Origin: Hadesarchaea archaeon
GTDB taxonomy: Archaea > Hadarchaeota > Hadarchaeia > Hadarchaeales > Hadarchaeaceae
NCBI GenBank assembly: GCA_003661465.1
Contig: QMWE01000001.1
Span: 1 to 39,771 of the forward strand
Reading direction: 5' to 3'
DNA: 39,771 nt
The notes beneath the pieces were generated by a model that was not told the DNA's origin, did not search any database, and saw nothing but the letters and a program-made list of their open reading frames with translations. The translations under genes were made by a program, and so were the position numbers. Positions 3,184-34,441 of the stretch are shown piece after piece; within the stretch, counting starts at the first letter, position 1; each line of letters starts with the position of its first letter.

Positions 3184-4647
3184 TCATCTCCGGGCCAGAG
3201 CCACGCCCACCGCCGCGAGCGCGAACACCAGTACCACGAACAGAATGAGCGATGTGAAATCATATATCCCTGATGGCTCAGCCGGCTTAGCTGGGGTCTG
3301 AACCGAAACTTTCCCTTTTGCCAAAAAGGTGCCGCTGCCGCCGGAATACGAGCTTTCGTATGAGACGCTGGAGGTGAACACGTGCCTGCTGCTGTACGCG
3401 TTCTCCTTCAACCGAACCTCAAAACTCGTCTGCCATTCATCCCCGCTGGCCAAAAAGCTCTTCTGTCGAGGGGGAGTCATTATCTCAAAATACGATGTGT
3501 CCGTCTCCAATCCGGCCGTCAGATTACTAACTGAATTTTGTCCCAAATTTTTGATCGTGGCCGTCAGCGTCAGCGTGTCGTTCTCGATTACAGGTGATGT
3601 CTGCAGGTCGATGCTCACTAAGACTTGGGGAATTATCGAACCGGAAACTTGGCCTCCCAGCTCCGTTGGCTCGCCGACATAATAGTTCCACCTCTTCTCT
3701 ATGTATCTGGGTGAGTGCCAGACTATCTGTCCATGTTCGTTCACCACATCATCACCGCCTGTCGTCGCCCCGGCGATGTGGGCATAATCGACCTCTCCAA
3801 ATGAACCCACGTGTTGCGGCCAAACGGCATCTGCTGGAACCCAGCCGTAGTTTGGCAGGTAAAAGATCGCCCACGCATGCCCGAGAGTTTGAATATCAGC
3901 GCCCGCCTCCGTGGTGTAGAGGGCGAGATAACCATAACCGGACACTGATTTAGCCGGAATGCCGGCTGCCCGCGCAAGAGCCACAAAGAGATTGGAGAAC
4001 TCCGTACAGTCGCCCTTGCGGGCGTGGTAGCCCCAGAGCGCGCTGTGTTCCGTTGTTTGAGGTTCGTACTCCATATTTTCCAGAAGCCACTCAAATATCC
4101 TCCTCGCTTTGTAATATGGATTCGTCAAAGTTCCTGTGAGCTCCTGTGCCAAGTTCTGAATCTCGGAACTATCGCTCTCATAAAGCCCCTCCACGGGAGT
4201 CGTGTATGCTATGACCTCCGAAGGAAACGTGCTCCCTACCATTTCGGGATCGACCGAGAGCTCCACTGAATTGACCTTCAAAACCTGCACCACCGATATC
4301 GTCACGGATTCTCCCGGATCCAAATCTCCAAGAGAGATGACGGCCCACCGGTTATCCTCCGTCGATGAGATCTGAGGAGACATCGGATTTCCGTCGACTG
4401 TTATTTCCTCATCGATGACCTCCTGATCTGCCCACCCCGAAAGGTTATCAAACAAGACTATCGTTGCACGCGAGTCAAGCGCCACGTGTTGTCCCACATT
4501 CTGAACCACGTAATTTATAGTCACCGTGTAAACAGCTGCTTCCTCACCCTGCGCGTGGGTCTGTGGACTAAATGCAAGCAAGATGCACAGCGCGATGAGG
4601 ATATGCCCGTACGGTCTCATACGGTTCACGTTTGGTCCACATGACAA
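3184..4647 (-). CDS. transglutaminase-like domain surface protein (signal peptide, C-terminal TM anchor)
   Basis: Transglutaminase core GDCTEFSNLFVALARAAGIPAKSVSGYGY ... GHAWAIFYLPNYGWVPADA (Cys-His-Asp triad). N-terminal signal-like MRPYGHILIALCILLAFSPQTHA and C-terminal hydrophobic LILFVVLVFALAAVGVALARR. The start is either TTG 4647 or ATG 4620. Confidence 0.8.
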   Translation of the reverse strand: MSCGPNVNRMRPYGHILIALCILLAFSPQTHAQGEEAAVYTVTINYVVQNVGQHVALDSRATIVLFDNLSGWADQEVIDEEITVDGNPMSPQISSTEDNRWAVISLGDLDPGESVTISVVQVLKVNSVELSVDPEMVGSTFPSEVIAYTTPVEGLYESDSSEIQNLAQELTGTLTNPYYKARRIFEWLLENMEYEPQTTEHSALWGYHARKGDCTEFSNLFVALARAAGIPAKSVSGYGYLALYTTEAGADIQTLGHAWAIFYLPNYGWVPADAVWPQHVGSFGEVDYAHIAGATTGGDDVVNEHGQIVWHSPRYIEKRWNYYVGEPTELGGQVSGSIIPQVLVSIDLQTSPVIENDTLTLTATIKNLGQNSVSNLTAGLETDTSYFEIMTPPRQKSFLASGDEWQTSFEVRLKENAYSSRHVFTSSVSYESSYSGGSGTFLAKGKVSVQTPAKPAEPSGIYDFTSLILFVVLVFALAAVGVALARR

Positions 4648-7773: not shown

Positions 7774-8802
7774 ATGTCGGTCGCGATTGTTTACTCCGAA
7801 AAGTACTTGGAACATGTTCCGGGTCCTGGGCACCCAGAGCGTCCGGATCGTCTCAAAGCCATCGTCGAGGGGTTAAAACGGGCGGGCCTATGGCATGCTC
7901 CGGATGTGGAGATATTCGAGCCAAATCCGGCGATCCGCGAAGAGATCGAACTCGCACATGACCCGGAATACATCACACTGTTTGAGAAGTTGAGCGCGAT
8001 GGAAAGACCGATCGATGCGGACACTCCCGTCCACAAAAACACGTTGGAACTAGCCATGCTCGCGTCTGGAGGGGCTATCATGGCCGGGCGTCTGGTGGTT
8101 TCCGGAGACGTCAGGAGCGCCTTCGCGCTTGTTCGACCTCCAGGGCATCATGCGTCTAGGTCAGAAGGAGGGGGATTCTGCTATTTCAACAACGCGGCGG
8201 TGATGATCAAATACGTGAAAAAGGAATTTAACATTCGGCGAGTGTTCATTCTAGATATCGACGCTCACCATGGCAACGGTACCCAAGACATATTTTACGA
8301 TGACCCAACCGTGCTTTACATGTCCATTCATCAGCATCCCTCCACGCTTTATCCGGGAACGGGGTTCGTGAGCGAGATCGGAAGCGGAGAAGGAAAAGGA
8401 TACAACGTCAACGTGCCGGTGGGGCCTGGAAGCGACGATGCAGATTATGAGGGCATCATGCGTGAAATTTTCCTTCCACTATCCGAACAATTTAGACCTG
8501 AGTTATTTGTGGTATCCGTTGGGTTTGACGCCCACATCGACGATCCGCTGACGAGTCTCCAGCTTTCCACCTCCGCCTACGGTCGGCTGGCCGATTTTGT
8601 GATCCAGCAGGCGGAAAGGATGTGTGAAAGCAGAGTAATTTTCCTGCTCGAAGGGGGCTACGACCTGAATGCCCTCTCGGGAGGTGTGCTCAACATCATG
8701 AAGGTCATGCGAGGAGAAAGATTTTCACCGACGACGGAGCCCAAACATCCCGAAGTGATCGATGAAGTCAAACTTGCTCTATCCGACAAATGGAAGCTGT
8801 GA
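7774..8802 (+). CDS. histone deacetylase-family amidohydrolase (AcuC / acetylpolyamine amidohydrolase type)
   Basis: All catalytic motifs are present: RPPGHHA, DIDAHHGNGTQ, GFDAH and EGGY. Confidence 0.85.
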   Translation: MSVAIVYSEKYLEHVPGPGHPERPDRLKAIVEGLKRAGLWHAPDVEIFEPNPAIREEIELAHDPEYITLFEKLSAMERPIDADTPVHKNTLELAMLASGGAIMAGRLVVSGDVRSAFALVRPPGHHASRSEGGGFCYFNNAAVMIKYVKKEFNIRRVFILDIDAHHGNGTQDIFYDDPTVLYMSIHQHPSTLYPGTGFVSEIGSGEGKGYNVNVPVGPGSDDADYEGIMREIFLPLSEQFRPELFVVSVGFDAHIDDPLTSLQLSTSAYGRLADFVIQQAERMCESRVIFLLEGGYDLNALSGGVLNIMKVMRGERFSPTTEPKHPEVIDEVKLALSDKWKL

Positions 8803-10764: not shown

Positions 10765-10857
10765 GGGCTCGTGGTCCAGCTTGGATAAGACACAGGCCTG
10801 CGGTCGGAAAACGGCAGCGAGCCTGTAACCCGGGTTCGAATCCCGGCGAGCCCGCCA
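10765..10857 (+). tRNA. tRNA-Arg (anticodon GCG) with a 16-nt intron at the canonical 37/38 position; CCA encoded
   Basis: Acceptor stem GGGCTCG/CGAGCCC. T arm CCGGG-TTCGAAT-CCCGG. Anticodon stem CAGGC/GCCTG. Anticodon loop CT-GCG-G...A, with U33 and G37. The intron is 10804-10819 (TCGGAAAACGGCAGCG). CUGC (32-35) pairs with intron GCAG to form a 4-bp helix flanked by 3-nt bulges, which is a bulge-helix-bulge motif. Discriminator G followed by CCA. Confidence 0.85.
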
Positions 10858-21401: not shown

Positions 21402-22484
21402 CTAAAACCTGAGGGCCCGAGTAGGACATGCAGAAACGCAGAGCCCACATCCGTAACATTTGACCGGATCCACCCTAGCAACCCTACCAACTATGCGAAT
21501 CGCATCGTACATACAGTATCTCTCACACAGGCCACACGCATTACACCTAGACGAGATCACCTCAACAGGTTTGGGGGTGGTGCGAACCGGTTGCTCGGAC
21601 ATGTGTCTGAGAGCCGATCCTTTAAAATCGTTTATGCTGTTGTAACCCTTCGCCCGCATGAATTTTGCCATTTCATCCGCTAAAAGTCCATAAACCTTAT
21701 GACCACGAATTATAGCCGCAGTAGATATCTGCACGGCCGAGGCTCCTGCCATGATGAACTCCACGATATCACGCCCAGTGGAGATCCCCCCCGATCCGAT
21801 CACAGGTATCTTCACCGTACGTGCTATCTCGGCGACGCATCTGACCGCAAACGGTTTGATCGCCTGACCTGACAGCCATCCATAACCATTTGGACTACCA
21901 AGTATCGGCATGCCATTTTCCACGTCTATGACAAGACATGGACCAACAGCATTTATCGCAACTATGCCATCCGCACCGGCAGCTTCCACCGCCTGTGCGA
22001 ACTGGACCACATCAGTGGCGCCAGGGGGAACCTTGACAAAAACAGGCACTTTCACTGCTTCCTTCGCCGCTCTGATAGCTTCCGTGATCGTGGATATATC
22101 TCCGGAGTATAAGGTGGAGAGTTCAAGGGCGTTCGCCCCGGCGTCCACCACCCTTGGAGCGATTTTTTTAATTTCATCGGGGGAGTACCCCACGCTCACG
22201 AGTAAAGGCAACCCAGTTTTTTTCGCCTTGGGAAGCTCGTGTCTTACCCACTGATCCAACGTGATATCACTCCAAAGTTCCGCGTGCATCAGACCATCTC
22301 TGATCTTGACGAGACACGGGCGTGGTACGTGTGCGGGAGCAACACTCAAAGTTTTGGAGACCAGTGCACCCGCCCCTCCCATCGCGGCTTTTACCATGCT
22401 ATCACCGTTGCGCACGGTTGGACCAGCTGCCGGCATAATTGGATTTTTTAGCTTTATGCCGCAGATTTCGACGGATAGATCCAT
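21402..22484 (-). CDS. DHODH / dihydropyrimidine-dehydrogenase (PreA)-like FMN TIM-barrel fused to a C-terminal 2x[4Fe-4S] ferredoxin domain
   Basis: MDLSVEICGIKLKNPIMPAAGP is a typical DHODH N-terminus. FMN-binding motifs are VFVKVPP, IVAINAVGP and IGSGGISTGRDIVEFIMAGASAVQISTA. The C-terminus has CNACGLCERYC and CYGCGLCVSACP. ATG 22484 lies 4 nt downstream of the stop of the preceding gene. The track ORF start at 22613 would overlap that gene. Confidence 0.75.
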   Translation of the reverse strand: MDLSVEICGIKLKNPIMPAAGPTVRNGDSMVKAAMGGAGALVSKTLSVAPAHVPRPCLVKIRDGLMHAELWSDITLDQWVRHELPKAKKTGLPLLVSVGYSPDEIKKIAPRVVDAGANALELSTLYSGDISTITEAIRAAKEAVKVPVFVKVPPGATDVVQFAQAVEAAGADGIVAINAVGPCLVIDVENGMPILGSPNGYGWLSGQAIKPFAVRCVAEIARTVKIPVIGSGGISTGRDIVEFIMAGASAVQISTAAIIRGHKVYGLLADEMAKFMRAKGYNSINDFKGSALRHMSEQPVRTTPKPVEVISSRCNACGLCERYCMYDAIRIVGRVARVDPVKCYGCGLCVSACPTRALRF

Positions 22485-22488
22485 AAGA

Positions 22489-23835
22489 TCATCTGCCCCT
22501 TGCCAATCCCAGTTTTTGCCATATTCGCTCCATAGACCTTTTCGCCTGCTTCGCGATCTCCACTTCATCCACCGTTTGTACCTTTCGGTTTGACATGATA
22601 ACGTTTCCGCCAACCAGCACCGTCTCTACGTTTCGACCGCTGACGGCATTCACCACATGTTCCACCACGTTGTCAGAACGAAGAGGCACTGGAGAATGAC
22701 CTGGATTTACAATTATAATGTCAGCCAGCTTTCCATGCTCAATCGACCCAACTTCATTTTGAAGTCCGTATAATTCCGCACCCTTTATCGTCGCCATCTC
22801 CAGCACTTCCATCGGTGTCAACGCGTCCGGATCATGAGTGACCACTTTTTGTGAAAGGTAAGCAGCCCGGAGGTTCTCAAACCAATCAAAGAGATACCCT
22901 CCGTCACCTATTCCAACCGAAATACCCGAGGAGGCCATTTTCATCACAGGAGTTACACCCACTCCATCCAACATCTCATCCATGGGGCTATGAACCACTT
23001 TGGCCCCTCTTTTTTTGATCAACTTCAATTCCCTTTCACTCACGTGTACGGAATGTACCAACACGGACTCCGGACTCAACAAACCGGCATCGTTTAACCG
23101 CTCCACGGTTCGTTTACCAAAACGTTCATAACTTCGATACACATCGGATAGTCCTTTGGATGTGGTGACGGTAACAAAAGTTTTATACCTGTGTACTAAT
23201 TCCTTGACATACCACAAAAGCTCGTCCGAGACCAAAGATGAAGGCCCAATTCCAAACATTCCTCTCACGCGATGTATTCGCTCCTTTTTCACTTTCCTGA
23301 TAAAACGCTCATTTTCTCTTGTGGCCTTCGCACCTTCAGCTCGAGTACGACGCTCAGTAGCCTCGAACGCTATCATCCCACGAATTCTCGAACGCTCAAC
23401 TGCAAGGGACACCTTATCGAGGATACCTGCAATGGCATTTGGAGCTGAGATCGTGCCAGCAAATGAGGTAACTCCCGTCTTCAGAAATCGAAGGCATGAA
23501 TAAAGTACGACCGCGTATACATCCTCTTTTGTCATTGCTTCCTCCACTGGCCAGTATACCCGCTGCTGGAGCTGGGAAAGATCCGAAAAAGAACCCATCT
23601 TACCCCTTGTGCCCAGTAAAAACAATCCATGAAGACATGTGTGAGAACACACGAAGCCGGGCATGACGATCCTTCCACGTGCATCTATGACCTCCTCGGG
23701 CTTTTCCCTTCCCGCCCAACCGCGTTTTACGGAGATTATACGGCCCTCATCCACGGTCACCGCTCCCTCGGTGATGATCCGGTGATCCTTATCCATCGTG
23801 AGAACCAAACCATTTTTTATCAACAGATCGACCAA
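22489..23835 (-). CDS. amidohydrolase-superfamily protein (SsnA / MtaD / chlorohydrolase-like aminohydrolase)
   Basis: LLIKNGLVLTMD...DEGRIISV...VMPGFVCSHTCLHG, then VHSVHVSERE, VVHSPMDEM, IGDGG and GSIEHGKLADIIIV give the subtype-III amidohydrolase layout. Confidence 0.8.
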   Translation of the reverse strand: MVDLLIKNGLVLTMDKDHRIITEGAVTVDEGRIISVKRGWAGREKPEEVIDARGRIVMPGFVCSHTCLHGLFLLGTRGKMGSFSDLSQLQQRVYWPVEEAMTKEDVYAVVLYSCLRFLKTGVTSFAGTISAPNAIAGILDKVSLAVERSRIRGMIAFEATERRTRAEGAKATRENERFIRKVKKERIHRVRGMFGIGPSSLVSDELLWYVKELVHRYKTFVTVTTSKGLSDVYRSYERFGKRTVERLNDAGLLSPESVLVHSVHVSERELKLIKKRGAKVVHSPMDEMLDGVGVTPVMKMASSGISVGIGDGGYLFDWFENLRAAYLSQKVVTHDPDALTPMEVLEMATIKGAELYGLQNEVGSIEHGKLADIIIVNPGHSPVPLRSDNVVEHVVNAVSGRNVETVLVGGNVIMSNRKVQTVDEVEIAKQAKRSMERIWQKLGLARGR

Positions 23836-23953
23836 ATCAACCCCTGTGAAGGAAACTATGGGAGCCCATTTAACTTTACCGGCATCTGCCCAAATTCAGG
23901 GGTAAGCATCTCCGTGAAGACAAAACCAAATAAATCCCTCAAATTAGAGGAAT

Positions 23954-24178
23954 ATGGTGAAAAATGTGCCTGAGTTCTCCGTCTTGGCCATGAAGAGGCT
24001 CATCCAGAGGGTTTCTAAATTTCGTGTTTCTCGTGGAGCTGCATTAGAGCTCAGTGCTGTGCTTGAGGAGCATGGTTTGAAGATATCCAGTGAAGCCCTG
24101 AAGCTCGCCCAGCATCGTGGCGCGAAGACCGTGAACGAAAAAGACATTCGGGCAGCTGCAGGGGGCGTACAAAGCTAA
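23954..24178 (+). CDS. archaeal histone (HMf-type histone fold)
   Basis: The 74-aa sequence FSVLAMKRLIQRVSKFRVSRGAALELSAVLEEHGLKISSEALKLAQHRGAKTVNEKDIRAA aligns by eye with HMfB, including the RVS, H-x-G-x-KT and (E/K)DI positions. Confidence 0.8.
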   Translation: MVKNVPEFSVLAMKRLIQRVSKFRVSRGAALELSAVLEEHGLKISSEALKLAQHRGAKTVNEKDIRAAAGGVQS

Positions 24179-24191
24179 ATACGATCATCTG

Positions 24192-25535
24192 GTGAACTGC
24201 TTGAGCGAACTTGTCATTCGAAATGCTAGGTTGGTTTTGCCTGAAGGAGTGATACGTGGAGAACTATCTGTTGAAAAAGGGAAAATTCAGGAAATCGCAG
24301 TAAGCGGGCTGGAGAAAGGAGATACGGAGATCGATGCTAGGGGAAAGATCATCATGCCGGGTGTGATAGATACATGTGTTCACATTCGCGCTAGACGATC
24401 GTCCTATCGCGAAGATTTCCACGACTGCAGCGTTGCCGCAATTGCCGGCGGGATCACGACCATCATCGCCATGCCATTGGATCAAACCACCCAAACCCCA
24501 AAGACCATCCAAAACTTGATCAGGGCCGGACAGAAAAATAGCTTGGTTGATTTTGCAACCTATGCAAGCGACACTGAGGAAGGTCTTGCAAAAAATGCTT
24601 TGAAGATAACATCCCTTGGCGTAAAATCTTTCATGATACCGATGTGGAGGGTCATCAACGCGGAACGCGGGGAACTCGAACAATTGATGAGGACTGTGAA
24701 ACCCCTCGACGGCATGATAACGACCGATGCGAGATTTGGAGAAATGGACCAAGACGAAAAAATGATCAAACTTCAAAAACTTCGAAAGGATCCATCCGCA
24801 CATGCTGAAACCCGCCCTGAAGAAATCGAGGAGAAAATTGCGAGAAAGGTGATGGAAGCGAGCGGGCACACCAAGTGTAGGGTTCATTTCTTTCCAGTTA
24901 CTACCAAGAAAACGTCTGAGGTGGTCCTCGAGTTCAAGAAGAAGAAATTGAAAGTGAGCTCTGGGACATGCCTTCATTTCCTTACGTTCACGAAGAAGGA
25001 TATGGAAAAATTTGGCCCATTTTTAAAGGTGGAACCTCCACTGAGGACCAACGAAGATCGCATGGCCCTATGGAAAGCTCTTGAGGAGGGAACGATAGAC
25101 ACCGTCGCGAGCGGTCACACGCCAGTTTTCAGAGATGAAAAGGAAGAGGGCTGGAAAAACATTTGGAAGGTCCCATCGGGAATCCCGGGCCTAGAAACGT
25201 TGCTGCCCGTAATGCTGAAAAACAGCGTGACAGCGGGTCGGCTAACCCTAGAAAATGTCGTGAACATCTTATGCACCAAACCGGCCCAGATATTTGGTTT
25301 ATACCCGCGAAAGGGCATCATCAGTAAAGGCTCGGATGCCGATCTGGTGATGGTGGATTTCCAGAAAGAAACCACGGTAAACGCTGGAAAACTTCACAGC
25401 GCTGCGGACTGGACACCGTACGACGGACTGAAACTCAAGGGGACGCCAACCATGACCATTTCCAGAGGGACCATCCTGATGGAGGACGGAGAAATCATCG
25501 AAAAACTTGGACACGGGCAGTTTTTGGCCGTGTAG
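24192..25535 (+). CDS. cyclic amidohydrolase-like protein (dihydroorotase / dihydropyrimidinase / hydantoinase fold) with a degenerate metal centre
   Basis: The family layout is visible: VIRNARLVLPEG...VEKGKIQEI...IMPGVIDTCVHIR, GGITTI, GVKSFM, KVEPPLR, ALWKALEEGTIDTVASGHTP and GSDADLVMVD. The start codon is GTG. Confidence 0.8.
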   Translation: MNCLSELVIRNARLVLPEGVIRGELSVEKGKIQEIAVSGLEKGDTEIDARGKIIMPGVIDTCVHIRARRSSYREDFHDCSVAAIAGGITTIIAMPLDQTTQTPKTIQNLIRAGQKNSLVDFATYASDTEEGLAKNALKITSLGVKSFMIPMWRVINAERGELEQLMRTVKPLDGMITTDARFGEMDQDEKMIKLQKLRKDPSAHAETRPEEIEEKIARKVMEASGHTKCRVHFFPVTTKKTSEVVLEFKKKKLKVSSGTCLHFLTFTKKDMEKFGPFLKVEPPLRTNEDRMALWKALEEGTIDTVASGHTPVFRDEKEEGWKNIWKVPSGIPGLETLLPVMLKNSVTAGRLTLENVVNILCTKPAQIFGLYPRKGIISKGSDADLVMVDFQKETTVNAGKLHSAADWTPYDGLKLKGTPTMTISRGTILMEDGEIIEKLGHGQFLAV

Positions 25536-25543
25536 CCATGACC

Positions 25544-26866
25544 TCACCTAGCTTTCTCAGAGATTTTTCCATACACATACAGTGATCTCATGAGCAGGGT
25601 TGCCTCTTCGGGAGAACCACAGACGGGCAATTTTGTATCCGCCAAAACCTCCCGCGCACGGGAATGATCATCCGGCGTCGAGGCCATGACGACCACGGGC
25701 TTATCTTTGAACCTCTTCGCCACATCCGCCAGAGCCCCTACCTCTCCTTGCTCCAACAATGCACCTGCAAATGAAGTTATCACTATTACGCCATCCACAT
25801 TTTTATCGGACAACAACTGCTCAACAGAATATCTGTATGCATCTCCCCTAGCCCCAACCCCCAGATCCACAAAAGTTGTGATATTGACATTTCCATACCT
25901 CGCCGAGATCTTCTTGGAAATTTCGGATGAAAGCTGTGCTGGAATCAGCCCACCAAGGGAAAGATGTTTTACCAGGAGTTTTCCCTTTCCTGCTAAATTG
26001 GTGACTACCGCCACGCGGTTACCATGCATGGGCGGTTGCTTCGCCAATCCCTCCGCGAGGAGTAGGGCCTCCCTGACATTCTTGGCTTGAAACGCTTTGA
26101 CCTGCCTGAGTGCCGATGCCAAGATATCTCCGTATTCCATTCCTCCGTACAACACCACAACTGGTTTTCTCTTCGTGGCTTCCCTGACGGATTCAATAAA
26201 TTTTCTCCCATTCCCAAGCTCATCGAGATAAACACATATGCATTTCGTCTCTCTGTCGTTCGCTAGGTATCCAACGACATCCGTAAGGCCGATGCCCATC
26301 TCCTCTCCAGTACACACAAGTTTGCTTATCCCCACGCGATTGGAACACGCCCAATCCAACATTTCGATTGCAAGTCCCCCATCCTGGGAGACTATCGATA
26401 TATTCCCCCGTCTGGGTACTGAAACCGATGCTGGCACGAGCACGAGCCCACATGTAGTATTGACCATCCCACCGCTTGCACCGGGACCCAAGAGAATAAT
26501 TTTGCGTTTCCCTGCCAGATTTTCGAGCACTTTTCGCTGTCTCCGATCTACCTCGTTCGTGAGTAACACCAGCGCCTTGATTTTTTTGCCAATCAGAGCC
26601 GATAAATTCTTGGCAAGGAAAACCTTTGACAACGACACCACTGCCAAATCCTGTCCCTTTGGTACTTTGGCCAAACTCCTCTCGTAACCCTCAACATTTC
26701 CGCTCAAATCCACGCCGTAAACTTTGCCTCTTGTAAACTTGGAGATGTTGGAAACGATCCATCTGAAAAACATTGCGGGCACATTTCCCACATCCTTTGC
26801 GTCCGAGGCGCCCAATACTACCACCGACTTGGGCCCAAACAGAGTGTCGAGCTCCTTCGACATCAT
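25544..26866 (-). CDS. ADP-forming acyl-CoA synthetase (ACD) alpha-subunit-like protein (CoA-binding plus CoA-ligase domains)
   Basis: LFGPKSVVVLGASDAKDVGN is the CoA-binding N-terminus. ILLGPGASGG, ISIVSQDGGLAIEMLDW and VAVVTNLAGKG fit the ACD alpha layout. A strong GGAGGTGA Shine-Dalgarno site precedes the ATG, and the start overlaps the upstream gene's stop (ATGA). Confidence 0.8.
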   Translation of the reverse strand: MMSKELDTLFGPKSVVVLGASDAKDVGNVPAMFFRWIVSNISKFTRGKVYGVDLSGNVEGYERSLAKVPKGQDLAVVSLSKVFLAKNLSALIGKKIKALVLLTNEVDRRQRKVLENLAGKRKIILLGPGASGGMVNTTCGLVLVPASVSVPRRGNISIVSQDGGLAIEMLDWACSNRVGISKLVCTGEEMGIGLTDVVGYLANDRETKCICVYLDELGNGRKFIESVREATKRKPVVVLYGGMEYGDILASALRQVKAFQAKNVREALLLAEGLAKQPPMHGNRVAVVTNLAGKGKLLVKHLSLGGLIPAQLSSEISKKISARYGNVNITTFVDLGVGARGDAYRYSVEQLLSDKNVDGVIVITSFAGALLEQGEVGALADVAKRFKDKPVVVMASTPDDHSRAREVLADTKLPVCGSPEEATLLMRSLYVYGKISEKAR

Positions 26867-27582
26867 TTCACCTCCAAGGTGACTCGAGCGTCCGCCACGA
26901 CCGCGCCCCTGCCCGCGTCGAATACGAAAACTGGGTCTAACTCGACTTTTGATATCTCCAGAAATTCATGCACGAGCTGACCGATCTTGCAGATCACGTC
27001 CGCCAATGCATCCATATCAGATGAAGGTGTGTCCCGGCCACCAACGAGGATTGGATAACCCCTGACCTCGCTGATCATCTCATGAGCGTCGTCTAAAGTC
27101 AAAGGGGCGAGCCTGAAGCTGGAATCGTCCAGCCTGCCCCCCCAAAACTTCTCCATGCTCAAACATACGACGGCTCCAAAAGACGGGTTCCGTTCGGCAC
27201 GGACGATCACCTCGCGCGCGGGTGGTAGGTACTCCTGCACGGTCACGCCCAAGAGCTTGGCACTTGGTCTGTTGGAGCGGGTGTTCTCAATTATCTCATC
27301 AAACGCCTGACGGAGTTCTATCTCCGAGCCGATCCCGACCCTTACTCCACCAACCGAACTCTTTTGAGGTATGTCAGGAGAAGCTATTTTCATGACTAGG
27401 GGATAATGCACCTCGCGTGCGATCCTGATGGCCTCGCTCTTTTCTCTGGCAAGTTCGGTTCGGTTGACGGGGACCCCCCACGCCTCTAGAAGCCGTTTGG
27501 ATTCAATCTCCAAAAGTTCCAACTTCCCATCAGCTTTAGCCGACCTTATAATTTCGGCTACTCTTTTCATCTCAGGAGTCAT
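26863..27582 (-). CDS. ACD beta-subunit-like ATP-grasp protein
   Basis: LLEIESKRLLEAWGVPVNRTELA...HYPLVMKIASPDIPQKSSVGGVRVGI...REVIVRAERNPSFGAVV...YPILVGGRD. ATG 27582 is preceded by AGGTGA. The track ORF starts at TTG 27600. Confidence 0.8.
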   Translation of the reverse strand: MTPEMKRVAEIIRSAKADGKLELLEIESKRLLEAWGVPVNRTELAREKSEAIRIAREVHYPLVMKIASPDIPQKSSVGGVRVGIGSEIELRQAFDEIIENTRSNRPSAKLLGVTVQEYLPPAREVIVRAERNPSFGAVVCLSMEKFWGGRLDDSSFRLAPLTLDDAHEMISEVRGYPILVGGRDTPSSDMDALADVICKIGQLVHEFLEISKVELDPVFVFDAGRGAVVADARVTLEVK

Positions 27583-27827
27583 CCGGTCACCTAAAAACAA
27601 CTTATATTACTACTCAGCGATATAAAAATTTACCCTAAAATCGGAGAAATTGGCTTAATTTTTCCTAGATGGTCATTAAAGTTACGTTTTTTCCTTAAAC
27701 AGTAAAATAAGCCTAAATTTTCGTTGAAAAATTGAAAATAACTTCCGGACCTTATCAAAACCCAGACTGAAGCTCCCACCCGAAACCATTTTAACCAACG
27801 GTATCCTCCTATAACCACGGTGGGCTG

Positions 27828-33399: not shown

Positions 33400-34422
33400 C
33401 TAGGTCGAAGTATACCACTCCCGGATCACATTTTCCGCTGGCTTCCCCGTGAACTCCACATCCGGAAAAGGATCTGTCTGTTCTATTTTCGGACCCCAGC
33501 CGCAGATGAAATATCCTTTCGTGTTGTCCCATGTCTCCTCGAAGAAACGCTGGAAAATCTGCGCTTGCCGCTCTTCTGTGACCGGCACACCCATTTCTCC
33601 GAATAGAGAGCCCTTGAGACCGTAGCTCTCCACGCACCAGTTGAGGAAAGGAATCACCGTTTCCCCCAGATATTCAAAAAACTCAGATTCCGACGTGTCT
33701 ATTGCGTATACATGCACGGACACGTAGTCATATCCTGCGATGGTTCCATGCTCTGAAAAATCCCCGAGCTCTGGACCATAAAATTTTACCGCCACTTCTC
33801 CACTGAATCGTTGCTTGATGAGAGGAAGGATGTTCTCGGACCACCAGATGCCATCTTCGACGCCAAAAACCTGGGTCGGCTCGTTGATCGGGGAGAAGAG
33901 CTCCACATTTTCCTGCTCAGCTATCTCCGCCCAGTAAACGGAGACATCTGCAGAATTCTGCATTGCTACATCTCTTATTCCGGCGGGAACCACACCATCC
34001 GCATATTCTACATCGACCGTGAGATACACTCCCAGACCTGCATCGTGGGCCTTTCTTATGAGGGTAACGTATCCTTCCTCCGGGTTTTCCTCCCACTCAG
34101 GGGCAAACGGCACAGGGGTGAGGGTCCCATCGGAATTTATATCGTAAAATATCGAAAGGGCAAAAATGTTTATCCCATCCGCTATCATGTTGTCCGTGTC
34201 GTGTTCCAGCGCACGTTTCTCTCCTCCAGGCTGGGTCCAAACACCTTTGAAGAAAGAGAGATTCAGCCTCTGATGGGATTGCGACGATGCATTTTCCTGT
34301 GGCTGTGGCGCGGGCGGCGCGGTTTTATGATCATGTACTTGTTGAGCTAGAAAATATGCTGTTGCCCCTACGGTGATACACGCTGCAACTATTAGAATTA
34401 CTATATTTTTTCTAACGGTCAT
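33400..34422 (-). CDS. GH5-like (clan GH-A TIM-barrel) glycoside hydrolase with N-terminal membrane anchor
   Basis: TM anchor IVILIVAACITVGATAYFLA. VELFSPINEPTQ contains the NEP acid/base motif. YVSVHVYA is an H-x-Y motif. SLFGEMGVP is a GE-x-G nucleophile region. ATG 34422 is preceded by GAGGTGA. The track ORF starts at GTG 34431. Confidence 0.6.
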   Translation of the reverse strand: MTVRKNIVILIVAACITVGATAYFLAQQVHDHKTAPPAPQPQENASSQSHQRLNLSFFKGVWTQPGGEKRALEHDTDNMIADGINIFALSIFYDINSDGTLTPVPFAPEWEENPEEGYVTLIRKAHDAGLGVYLTVDVEYADGVVPAGIRDVAMQNSADVSVYWAEIAEQENVELFSPINEPTQVFGVEDGIWWSENILPLIKQRFSGEVAVKFYGPELGDFSEHGTIAGYDYVSVHVYAIDTSESEFFEYLGETVIPFLNWCVESYGLKGSLFGEMGVPVTEERQAQIFQRFFEETWDNTKGYFICGWGPKIEQTDPFPDVEFTGKPAENVIREWYTST

Positions 34423-34441
34423 CAAGTTCACCTCAATTCAT

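Follow-up and report, generated by a model that had tools for sequence, protein, structure and literature searches.

The window analysed here, a stretch of 39,771 nucleotides (39.8 kb) of a Hadesarchaea archaeon from the archaeal phylum Hadarchaeota (contig QMWE01000001.1), contains two adjacent genes for an alpha/beta pair of the type of the ADP-forming acyl-coenzyme A (CoA) synthetases (ACDs). Both genes are intact, translationally coupled, and under purifying selection, and they are not pseudogenes. As neither of the two catalytic histidines nor the swinging loop that carries one of them is present, the known ACD phosphoryl relay cannot run in this pair. The pair is orthologous by position to a canonical ACD and stands at the far end of a graded loss across the phylum; it does not belong to a separate sensor clade. 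We lean towards the view that the pair is a catalytically dead ACD descendant that has been kept as a non-enzymatic alpha/beta complex acting by binding.

The signals of the two genes could be read directly from the sequence, in agreement with an earlier note on this DNA that had described an ATGA overlap and Shine-Dalgarno-like sites. The features of the pair, including the altered active-site positions discussed below, are the following:

26863..27582, minus strand: beta-like gene, 239 amino acids (aa), ATP-grasp subunit of the ACD type, upstream gene of the pair
25544..26866, minus strand: alpha-like gene, 440 aa, ACD alpha fold (subdomains 1-2-5) without the swinging loop, downstream gene of the pair
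27582 (ATG) and 26865-26863 (TGA), minus strand: start and stop of the beta-like gene
26866-26864, minus strand: ATG start of the alpha-like gene, preceded by GGAGGTGA
26863..26866, minus strand: ATGA overlap of beta stop and alpha start (translational coupling)
27587..27592, minus strand: Shine-Dalgarno-like AGGTGA, 4 nt upstream of the beta ATG
26868..26875, minus strand: Shine-Dalgarno-like GGAGGTGA, upstream of the alpha ATG and within the end of beta
26132..26146, minus strand: five-residue turn GGMEY, alpha residues 241-245, replacing the canonical swinging loop of about 21 residues (16-residue deletion, no His)
26375..26389, minus strand: SQDGG, alpha residues 160-164, tip of power helix 1
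27364..27366, minus strand: codon CAA of beta Gln73, at the site of the second catalytic His (His71-beta of ckcACD1, H535 of Nmar_0206)
27148..27159, minus strand: SMEK, beta residues 142-145, replacing the Gly-rich loop G(L/M)GG; the subsequent V-E of the family has become G-G
26932..26949, minus strand: KVELDP, beta residues 212-217, replacing E(M/L)D(L/M)NP, the acidic/Asn metal-site motif of the ATP-grasp

In a functional ACD, ATP phosphorylates the beta histidine, the phosphate is passed to the alpha histidine, and the loop swings over about 30-40 Angstrom to the CoA site (PMC11494057, PMC13018889). The solved structures 2csu, 8wzu, 9y43, 4xyl_B, and 1wr2 were used in the alpha and beta alignments. 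The window alpha has a gap of 16 residues exactly over SESGARAASSHTGSLAGS of the solved ACDs, and this gap was placed alike by three alignment methods (phmmer, MAFFT, and hmmalign). In pairwise as well as multiple alignments, the canonical phosphohistidine loop ...K(A/G)G(K/R)SxxGAxAAxSHTG(S/A)LAGS... corresponds to ...LYGGMEYGDIL... in the window. The AlphaFold2 (AF2) model of alpha consists in this region of a strand (236-240), the five-residue turn, and a helix (246-255). The earlier note had quoted the peptides ATKRKPVVVLYGGMEYGDILASALRQVKAF from alpha and KIASPDIPQKSSVGGVRV from beta, and both are encoded where it had placed them; it was also right that no SHTG-type histidine is left, whereas its estimate of a deletion of roughly a dozen residues was too low.

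The phosphate site of alpha is altered as well. The Ser of the canonical SQSG motif at the tip of power helix 1 aligns with Asp162, and the second power-helix tip, (T/S)N(A/V)GGP, has become TNLAGKG. Further exchanges are NP(V/I)D to TFVD, GPNC to GPGA, and ITAGF to LLTNEV, and the window alpha departs at 22 of the 61 columns on which five His-containing alphas agree. In Nmar_1309, Ser411, which is equivalent to the SQSG Ser, stabilises the phosphohistidine together with an Asp of the partner chain (PMC13018889), and in Nmar_0206, G163 and A164 bind sulfate or phosphate (PMC11494057). Site-I residues that are still present in the window alpha are Q161, G163, G293, and D334 of FVDLG, the last being equivalent to Asp602' of Nmar_1309 (PMC13018889).

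The loop-less alpha clade lacks any invariant histidine, and its alignments revealed neither an alternative conserved histidine nor a clade-specific new conserved polar cluster. The invariant residues of the clade are mostly those shared with canonical ACDs; where the phosphate site used to be, a new acidic residue, Asp162, is almost invariant. The active-site replacements are not the same in all sublineages (N or D; xGQ or GKG; W or F), a pattern that resembles drift and not convergence towards a new site.

In beta, the conserved His of SPQ(I/V)(V/L/I)HKSD in the solved ACDs is matched by Gln73, as had been proposed. The histidine is found in 102 of 120 related betas, and the position is occupied by R, Q, S, or K in the sub-clade of the window. 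The ATP-grasp is also changed. Core positions were defined as those shared by three solved betas and by at least 90% of the His-bearing Hadarchaeota betas; the window beta was altered at 12 of these 49, as compared to 0-3 in betas that keep the histidine, and sister Hadarchaeota betas keep the histidine together with a median of 49/49 core residues. The SMEK stretch has the lowest predicted local distance difference test score (pLDDT) of the beta model. The expectation that the motifs for CoA binding and those of the ATP-grasp had been kept was thus not borne out, as these exchanges add to the absence of any match of the Pfam CoA_binding models in alpha. Alignment with the characterised ACDs and with PatZ, which had been suggested as a check, places no conserved histidine at either the phospho-loop or the beta site.

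Despite these changes, both proteins are confidently predicted to have the folds of ACD subunits. Beta matches PF13549 (Pfam ATP-grasp_5) over positions 2-221 of 221 with an expectation value (E) of 1.4e-62 and is related to 1wr2 and 4xyl_B with E values of about 1e-50. AF2 models were made of alpha and beta as single chains, each as a monomer. That of beta has a pLDDT of 93.1 and overlays in Foldseek with 4xym_B and 1wr2 at template modelling (TM) scores of 0.89-0.91. Alpha matches PF13607 (Succ_CoA_lig) only at positions 1-95 of 138, as well as PF00549 (Ligase_CoA). Its best solved relative is 2csu_A (E = 1.6e-42), and its model (pLDDT 93.7) gave TM scores of 0.87 to 2csu (445 columns), 0.85 to ckcACD1, and 0.84 to PatZ. 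The pair thus agrees with ACDs in alpha subdomains 1-2-5 (CoA-binding Rossmann, flavodoxin-like, and ligase-CoA) and in the beta ATP-grasp (subdomains 3-4), whereas the histidine of the mobile loop in alpha subdomain 2, that of beta, both power-helix phosphate tips, and the beta ATP-grasp motifs depart from the family. So does the score in the NCBIfam equivalog model TIGR02717 (AcCoA-syn-alpha), in which alpha reaches 208.6 bits against a cut-off of 567.15. The scores in the succinyl-CoA synthetase models are below the cut-offs too (TIGR01019, 41.1 versus 353.2; TIGR01016, 18.2 versus 375.6).

In its two-gene beta/alpha organisation and its subunit sizes, the pair corresponds to the heterotetrameric ACDs (EC 6.2.1.13, alpha2beta2), such as ACD1 of Ca. 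Korarchaeum cryptofilum (4xyl/4xym) and the Pyrococcus horikoshii subunits PH0766 (2csu) and 1wr2, with identities of 23-28% (alpha) and 37-38% (beta) and TM scores of 0.85-0.91; it differs from them by the lack of the swinging loop and of both histidines and by the changed site-I and ATP-grasp motifs. The fused homodimeric ACDs, namely the 4-hydroxybutyryl-CoA synthetase (8wzu) and the 3-hydroxypropionyl-CoA synthetase (9y43) of Nitrosopumilus and the dimethylsulfoniopropionate (DMSP) lyase DddX (7cm9), belong to the same five-subdomain superfamily and match the pair well in sequence and structure, but they are single chains in which both histidines (H256/H535; H503/H69) as well as the power-helix motifs are retained. 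Succinyl-CoA synthetase and ATP-citrate lyase alpha/beta are distant superfamily relatives with the same phosphohistidine-loop logic, with E values of 1e-6 or worse, NCBIfam scores of 41-45 against cut-offs of 336-353, and subdomains that are split differently between the chains.

In a search for orthologues, we scanned one genome per GTDB species, which returned 21 Hadarchaeota loci. The loop deletion is present in 19 of these 21 species loci and in 15 protein clusters (40-100% identity), and this recurrence across clusters and species shows that it is neither a chance event nor an assembly error. The common gene order begins with a metallophosphoesterase gene, often followed by HypD, and continues with beta and alpha, then the dihydroorotase-like and histone genes in the opposite orientation, and finally the SsnA-like and dihydroorotate dehydrogenase (DHOdh)/Fer4 genes, which read again in the direction of the pair. 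All 20 Hadarchaeota loci that extend beyond the pair have this order, including one (L029; beta 186-890, alpha 917-2254) with a canonical ACD at the same position, in which alpha reads ALSHTASLAGQ and beta reads SPDIIHKTDAGGVK and contains GLGG and EMDINP.

The other loci form a graded series. In one locus (L026, P0016 type), the loop is kept and the histidine is exchanged for Arg, as in a cluster of 8 members with the reading AISRTASLAG (P0221). Thirteen species have a deletion of 11-13 residues with the beta histidine and all beta core motifs kept, except that one of the 13 has Asn at the histidine site; the B3_Hades pair (L009 8001-10066) is an example of a pair with this deletion and a retained beta histidine. 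One locus (L016) combines the 16-residue deletion with a retained beta histidine, and in the window and loci L011-L014 a deletion of 16-17 residues goes together with lost beta motifs and a beta histidine that is replaced by Q, S, or R. A partial locus (L015) has the same alpha deletion as the window group, and its beta lies outside the covered stretch. The histidine was thus lost by several routes, namely exchange of H for R, partial deletion, and deletions of 11-13 or 16-17 residues. The drift of site I runs in parallel, from SQSG via SQSS and SQN/SQD to SQDGG and from GGP via SGP/DGA to GQA/GKG.

In a neighbour-joining tree of alpha, the loop-deleted proteins form one clade, in which the window group is nested on the longest branch, and the canonical and His-to-Arg forms stand in a sister group with alphas of Bathyarchaeia. 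The idea of a distinct His-less clade with a conserved neighbourhood holds insofar as a loop-deleted clade exists and the gene order is conserved; however, the forms are a graded series, and the order is shared with the canonical L029 locus. As a side observation, and in contrast to the Hadarchaeota loci, the closest His-containing alphas (452 aa, SHTASIAG), those of the Bathyarchaeia loci L032 and L034, are not accompanied by a beta gene up to 4 kb away in either direction.

When 1.84 billion representative proteins were searched exhaustively with a profile, nine loop-less clusters emerged at the level of 50% identity, in addition to His-to-Arg and partial-deletion clusters, and all of these that have names are from Hadarchaeota. 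Among the best 150 hits were six other His-less proteins, four of which are Pat-like proteins of 820-911 aa with GNAT (Acetyltransf) domains. The remaining two are GNAT-less fused ACD-like proteins from metagenome contigs, P0319 (698 aa) and P0368 (708 aa), which have no histidine at the aligned loop position in an automatic alignment and keep a full-length loop; free-standing His-less ACD-like proteins may therefore occur sporadically outside Hadarchaeota. The next-best scorers (P0224, P0227, and P0228) are fused canonical beta-alpha proteins, of which P0227 lies in an unrelated archaeal context.

Selection and the state of the reading frames show that the genes are maintained, in line with the claim that both are intact. 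In comparison with the closest relative (85-90% amino-acid identity), alpha has a ratio of nonsynonymous to synonymous substitution rates (dN/dS) of 0.174, and beta one of 0.168. For comparison, the two neighbouring amidohydrolases have ratios of 0.14-0.15, and Trm5, a metallo-beta-lactamase-fold gene, and a phosphoesterase have ratios of 0.06-0.08. Other loop-less pairs range from 0.17 to 0.55, and all comparisons are well below 1; against the His-containing relatives, dS is saturated (1.8-2.5), so that dN/dS is uninformative there. Both frames are open in all Hadarchaeota species loci that span them, 18 of 20 loci retain the overlap of beta stop and alpha start (ATGA, GTGA, or TAATG), and alpha identities are as low as 40% across species, yet the open reading frames (ORFs) are full length in essentially all 21. 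A separate observation concerns L024 of Hadesarchaea archaeon DG-33 (3396-4001), whose beta has Asn at the histidine position and an N-terminus that is about 40 residues short. Its dN/dS relative to the near-identical L025 is 0.50, and this beta may be a genuinely decaying copy or reflect an assembly problem.

That His-less ACD-like modules serve as regulatory domains in Pat/PatZ, as the earlier note stated, is documented: the ACD-like domain is inactive, as its alpha histidine is replaced (H254 of ACD1 corresponds to L245 of PatZ), and it binds acetyl-CoA and phosphate and allosterically controls the fused GNAT (PMC8556138, PMC12184503). The window pair resembles Pat/PatZ/PatA (type I/II; 9it0/9isq/9isb) in having an ACD-like architecture without the alpha histidine (TM 0.84), and in PatZ, too, the loop is shortened, by 4 residues. 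However, Pat/PatZ is a single chain of about 880 aa fused to a GNAT, whereas the window has separate ORFs of 239 and 440 aa without a GNAT. In addition, PatZ keeps the SQS phosphate site, a basic acetyl-CoA clamp, and the ATP-contacting histidine at the beta site (H531), of which the phosphate site and the histidine have been lost in the window pair, and the clamp appears to have been lost as well. At the positions of the ATP-contacting residues H531/H676, PatZ reads SPDIPHKSE and DIHP, and the window reads SPDIPQKSS and ELDP. As the window pair departs from PatZ in these phosphate, acetyl-CoA, and ATP-contact features, we do not class it as a Pat-type domain.

A mechanism that would account for the data is that an ancestral ACD (alpha2beta2) was converted in place, with the elements of the relay being lost step by step. 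No known catalytic part of the relay is left in the window pair: the alpha histidine together with its swinging loop, the power-helix-1 Ser, the GGP and NP(V/I)D loops, the beta histidine, the Gly-rich loop, and the metal-site Asn have all been lost. The resulting pair would be unable to interconvert acyl-CoA + ADP + Pi and acid + CoA + ATP. Instead, the alpha/beta complex, probably alpha2beta2, would bind another protein or, in what is left of site I, a small ligand, and its mode of action may be analogous to that of the inactive regulatory domain of Pat/PatZ, albeit in trans. The loss of the histidine by several independent routes under continued selection suggests that a non-catalytic role was already present when catalysis became dispensable. 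CoA or acyl-CoA is a possible ligand. A nucleotide is an unlikely one in the window lineage, because the alpha phosphate site, the CoA-binding signature, the beta Gly-rich loop, and the Mg-ligand position have drifted. The earlier proposal of a sensor or scaffold in place of a synthetase therefore stands with regard to the lost ACD relay, but not with regard to nucleotide sensing. A bolder version, which we put forward only tentatively and regard as rather doubtful, is that most of the Hadarchaeota converted an energy-conserving ACD into a free-standing alpha2beta2 regulator or sensor that acts in trans as the unfused archaeal counterpart of Pat/PatZ. In this version, the non-catalytic role would have come first, and the parts would have been shed afterwards (the alpha histidine, the alpha phosphate site, and the beta histidine with the nucleotide site).

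Several observations weigh against a binding or regulatory role. Neither a GNAT nor any other obvious client gene is present in the operon or in the scanned ORFs of the window. Alpha is the fastest-changing gene of the neighbourhood, with 40-44% identity to the clade with the 11-13-residue deletion as compared to 57-76% for most surrounding genes; this, together with a dN/dS of the pair above that of the housekeeping neighbours, could equally mean relaxed constraint. The residues K23 and R26 of the acetyl-CoA clamp of PatZ align with Ala23 and Val26 of the window (Leu and Glu in the clade consensus), and a Lys is kept near the position of PatZ R81. With the Pfam CoA-binding match gone and the phosphate site altered, the analogy to Pat is architectural only.

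It was in principle possible that the deletion and the substitutions are assembly or sequencing errors or result from misalignment, but the same features occur in independent assemblies (NCBI, JGI, ENA, and Logan) and the three alignment methods agree, so that the chance of an artefact is negligible. More serious is the question of whether the pair is a neofunctionalised enzyme, in which the site-I remnant (the CoA/acyl pocket between alpha subdomains 1, 2, and 5) or a remodelled ATP-grasp cleft runs another reaction. Candidates would be an acyl-CoA hydrolase, a transferase, a phosphotransacylase-like partial reaction, or chemistry unrelated to CoA. Purifying selection and the conserved fold would fit such an enzyme, as would the remaining Q161, G163, G293, and D334, the near-invariance of Asp162 at the old phosphate site, and the known repurposing within the superfamily, for example in the DMSP lyase DddX (7cm9). 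However, one would then have to reconcile it with the lack of a clade-specific new conserved polar cluster, with active-site changes that differ between sublineages, and with the lack of an operon partner that suggests a pathway, and we consider this explanation somewhat unlikely.

A further view is that the function was lost after the phylum had stopped needing an ACD and that the series represents snapshots of pseudogenisation. The order of events, with alpha elements lost before beta elements, is compatible with such a decaying relic, and so are the weak conservation of alpha, the least conserved gene of the neighbourhood, the dN/dS of 0.4-0.55 in some close pairs, and the L024 beta with its exchange of His for Asn and its shortened N-terminus. 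A functionless gene is not expected to stay open over such divergence, however, and the full-length ORFs and the conserved stop/start overlap over deep divergence, the dN/dS well below 1 in all comparisons, and the very confident predicted folds make decay distinctly improbable. Even less can be said for a pair that is still an acyl-CoA synthetase, with a histidine or loop provided in trans (such as by a paralogous canonical alpha, encoded elsewhere in the genome, that shares beta, as in Thermococcales) or with another nucleophile. The betas of sister lineages, which keep the histidine and the ATP-grasp core, would fit a beta that serves a working alpha or still binds ATP. In contrast, the window beta lacks the histidine, the Gly-rich loop, and the Asn, its alpha has no conserved histidine and a damaged phosphate site, and the window contains no second ACD gene. 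Moreover, sites I and II of solved ACDs are about 30-40 Angstrom apart and depend on the loop (PMC11494057, PMC13018889). Because beta is damaged too, residual ACD activity via a partner in trans is very unlikely for the window pair. On balance, a catalytically dead ACD descendant that acts by binding remains our preferred explanation.

The conserved block that adjoins the pair (21402-25535) has the same order in 20 Hadarchaeota species and consists of the following genes:

24192-25535: dihydroorotase-like amidohydrolase, passes TIGR00857
23954-24178: archaeal histone
22489-23835: SsnA-like aminohydrolase
21402-22613: DHOdh-like protein with two 4Fe-4S motifs, resembling PyrD or PreA

A functional link of the pair to these neighbours was considered and rejected. 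Since the canonical ACD of L029 has the same neighbours in the same order, the genes beside the pair run convergently or divergently, and a histone gene is among them, we treat the order as positional only, and no operon partner suggests a pathway. The block itself may be part of pyrimidine synthesis or of a reductive purine/pyrimidine pathway, and a 1094-aa Fer4_20/Pyr_redox_2 protein is added to it in some relatives. The DHOdh-like ORF begins at TTG and overlaps the SsnA-like gene by 125 nt; since the L001 orthologue is called at 360 aa, the true start is probably further downstream. In most Hadarchaeota loci (for example L004 7979-9064, L007 8066-9244, and L009 6707-7798), HypD (hydrogenase maturation) is the gene immediately upstream of beta and shares its strand; the window and its closest relative (L001/L011) have no HypD between beta and the phosphoesterase gene.

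The housekeeping genes of the window are archaeal (PolB, fibrillarin/Nop5, histone, Trm5, a proteasome subunit, and RIO kinase). Elsewhere in the window, 7774-8802 encodes a histone-deacetylase-family protein (Pfam E = 3.8e-98, no NCBIfam match), and a 343-aa ORF at 33400-34431 has no Pfam or NCBIfam match. A tRNA-Ala(TGC) was called at 10765-10857; its 93 nt exceed the length of a standard tRNA and are consistent with an archaeal intron.

Our literature search found no paper that discusses the Hadarchaeota ACD locus or the missing histidines, and the supplement of PMC10811742 contains nothing on acd genes. Public sources label such proteins 'acetyl-CoA synthetase (ADP-forming)', 'acetate--CoA ligase family protein', or 'acyl-CoA synthetase (NDP forming)', and most named loop-less alpha relatives are 'hypothetical protein' at NCBI. 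In uncultured archaea, ACD labels are routinely read as acetate fermentation with substrate-level ATP synthesis, and they feed the metabolic reconstructions of subsurface archaea. This "acetate/ATP" function probably does not apply to the window pair, and since the known mechanism is impossible in 20 of the 21 Hadarchaeota species loci, the inference of acetate formation and ATP synthesis should not rest on this locus.

His-less ACD-like modules as such are already known from Pat/PatZ, whose regulatory domain offers, by analogy, the only characterised precedent for a non-catalytic role. What is new is the free-standing two-subunit form, the full excision of the loop, and the additional loss of the beta histidine and of the phosphate and nucleotide sites, as well as the restriction to one archaeal phylum and the in-place orthology to a canonical ACD with intermediates in living lineages. 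The locus thus provides an unusually clean orthologous and syntenic series from an active enzyme to a pseudoenzyme, with several routes of histidine loss and an ordered decay of both active sites. If the binding or regulatory role is true, the ACD scaffold would work as a stand-alone regulator outside the bacterial Pat fusions.

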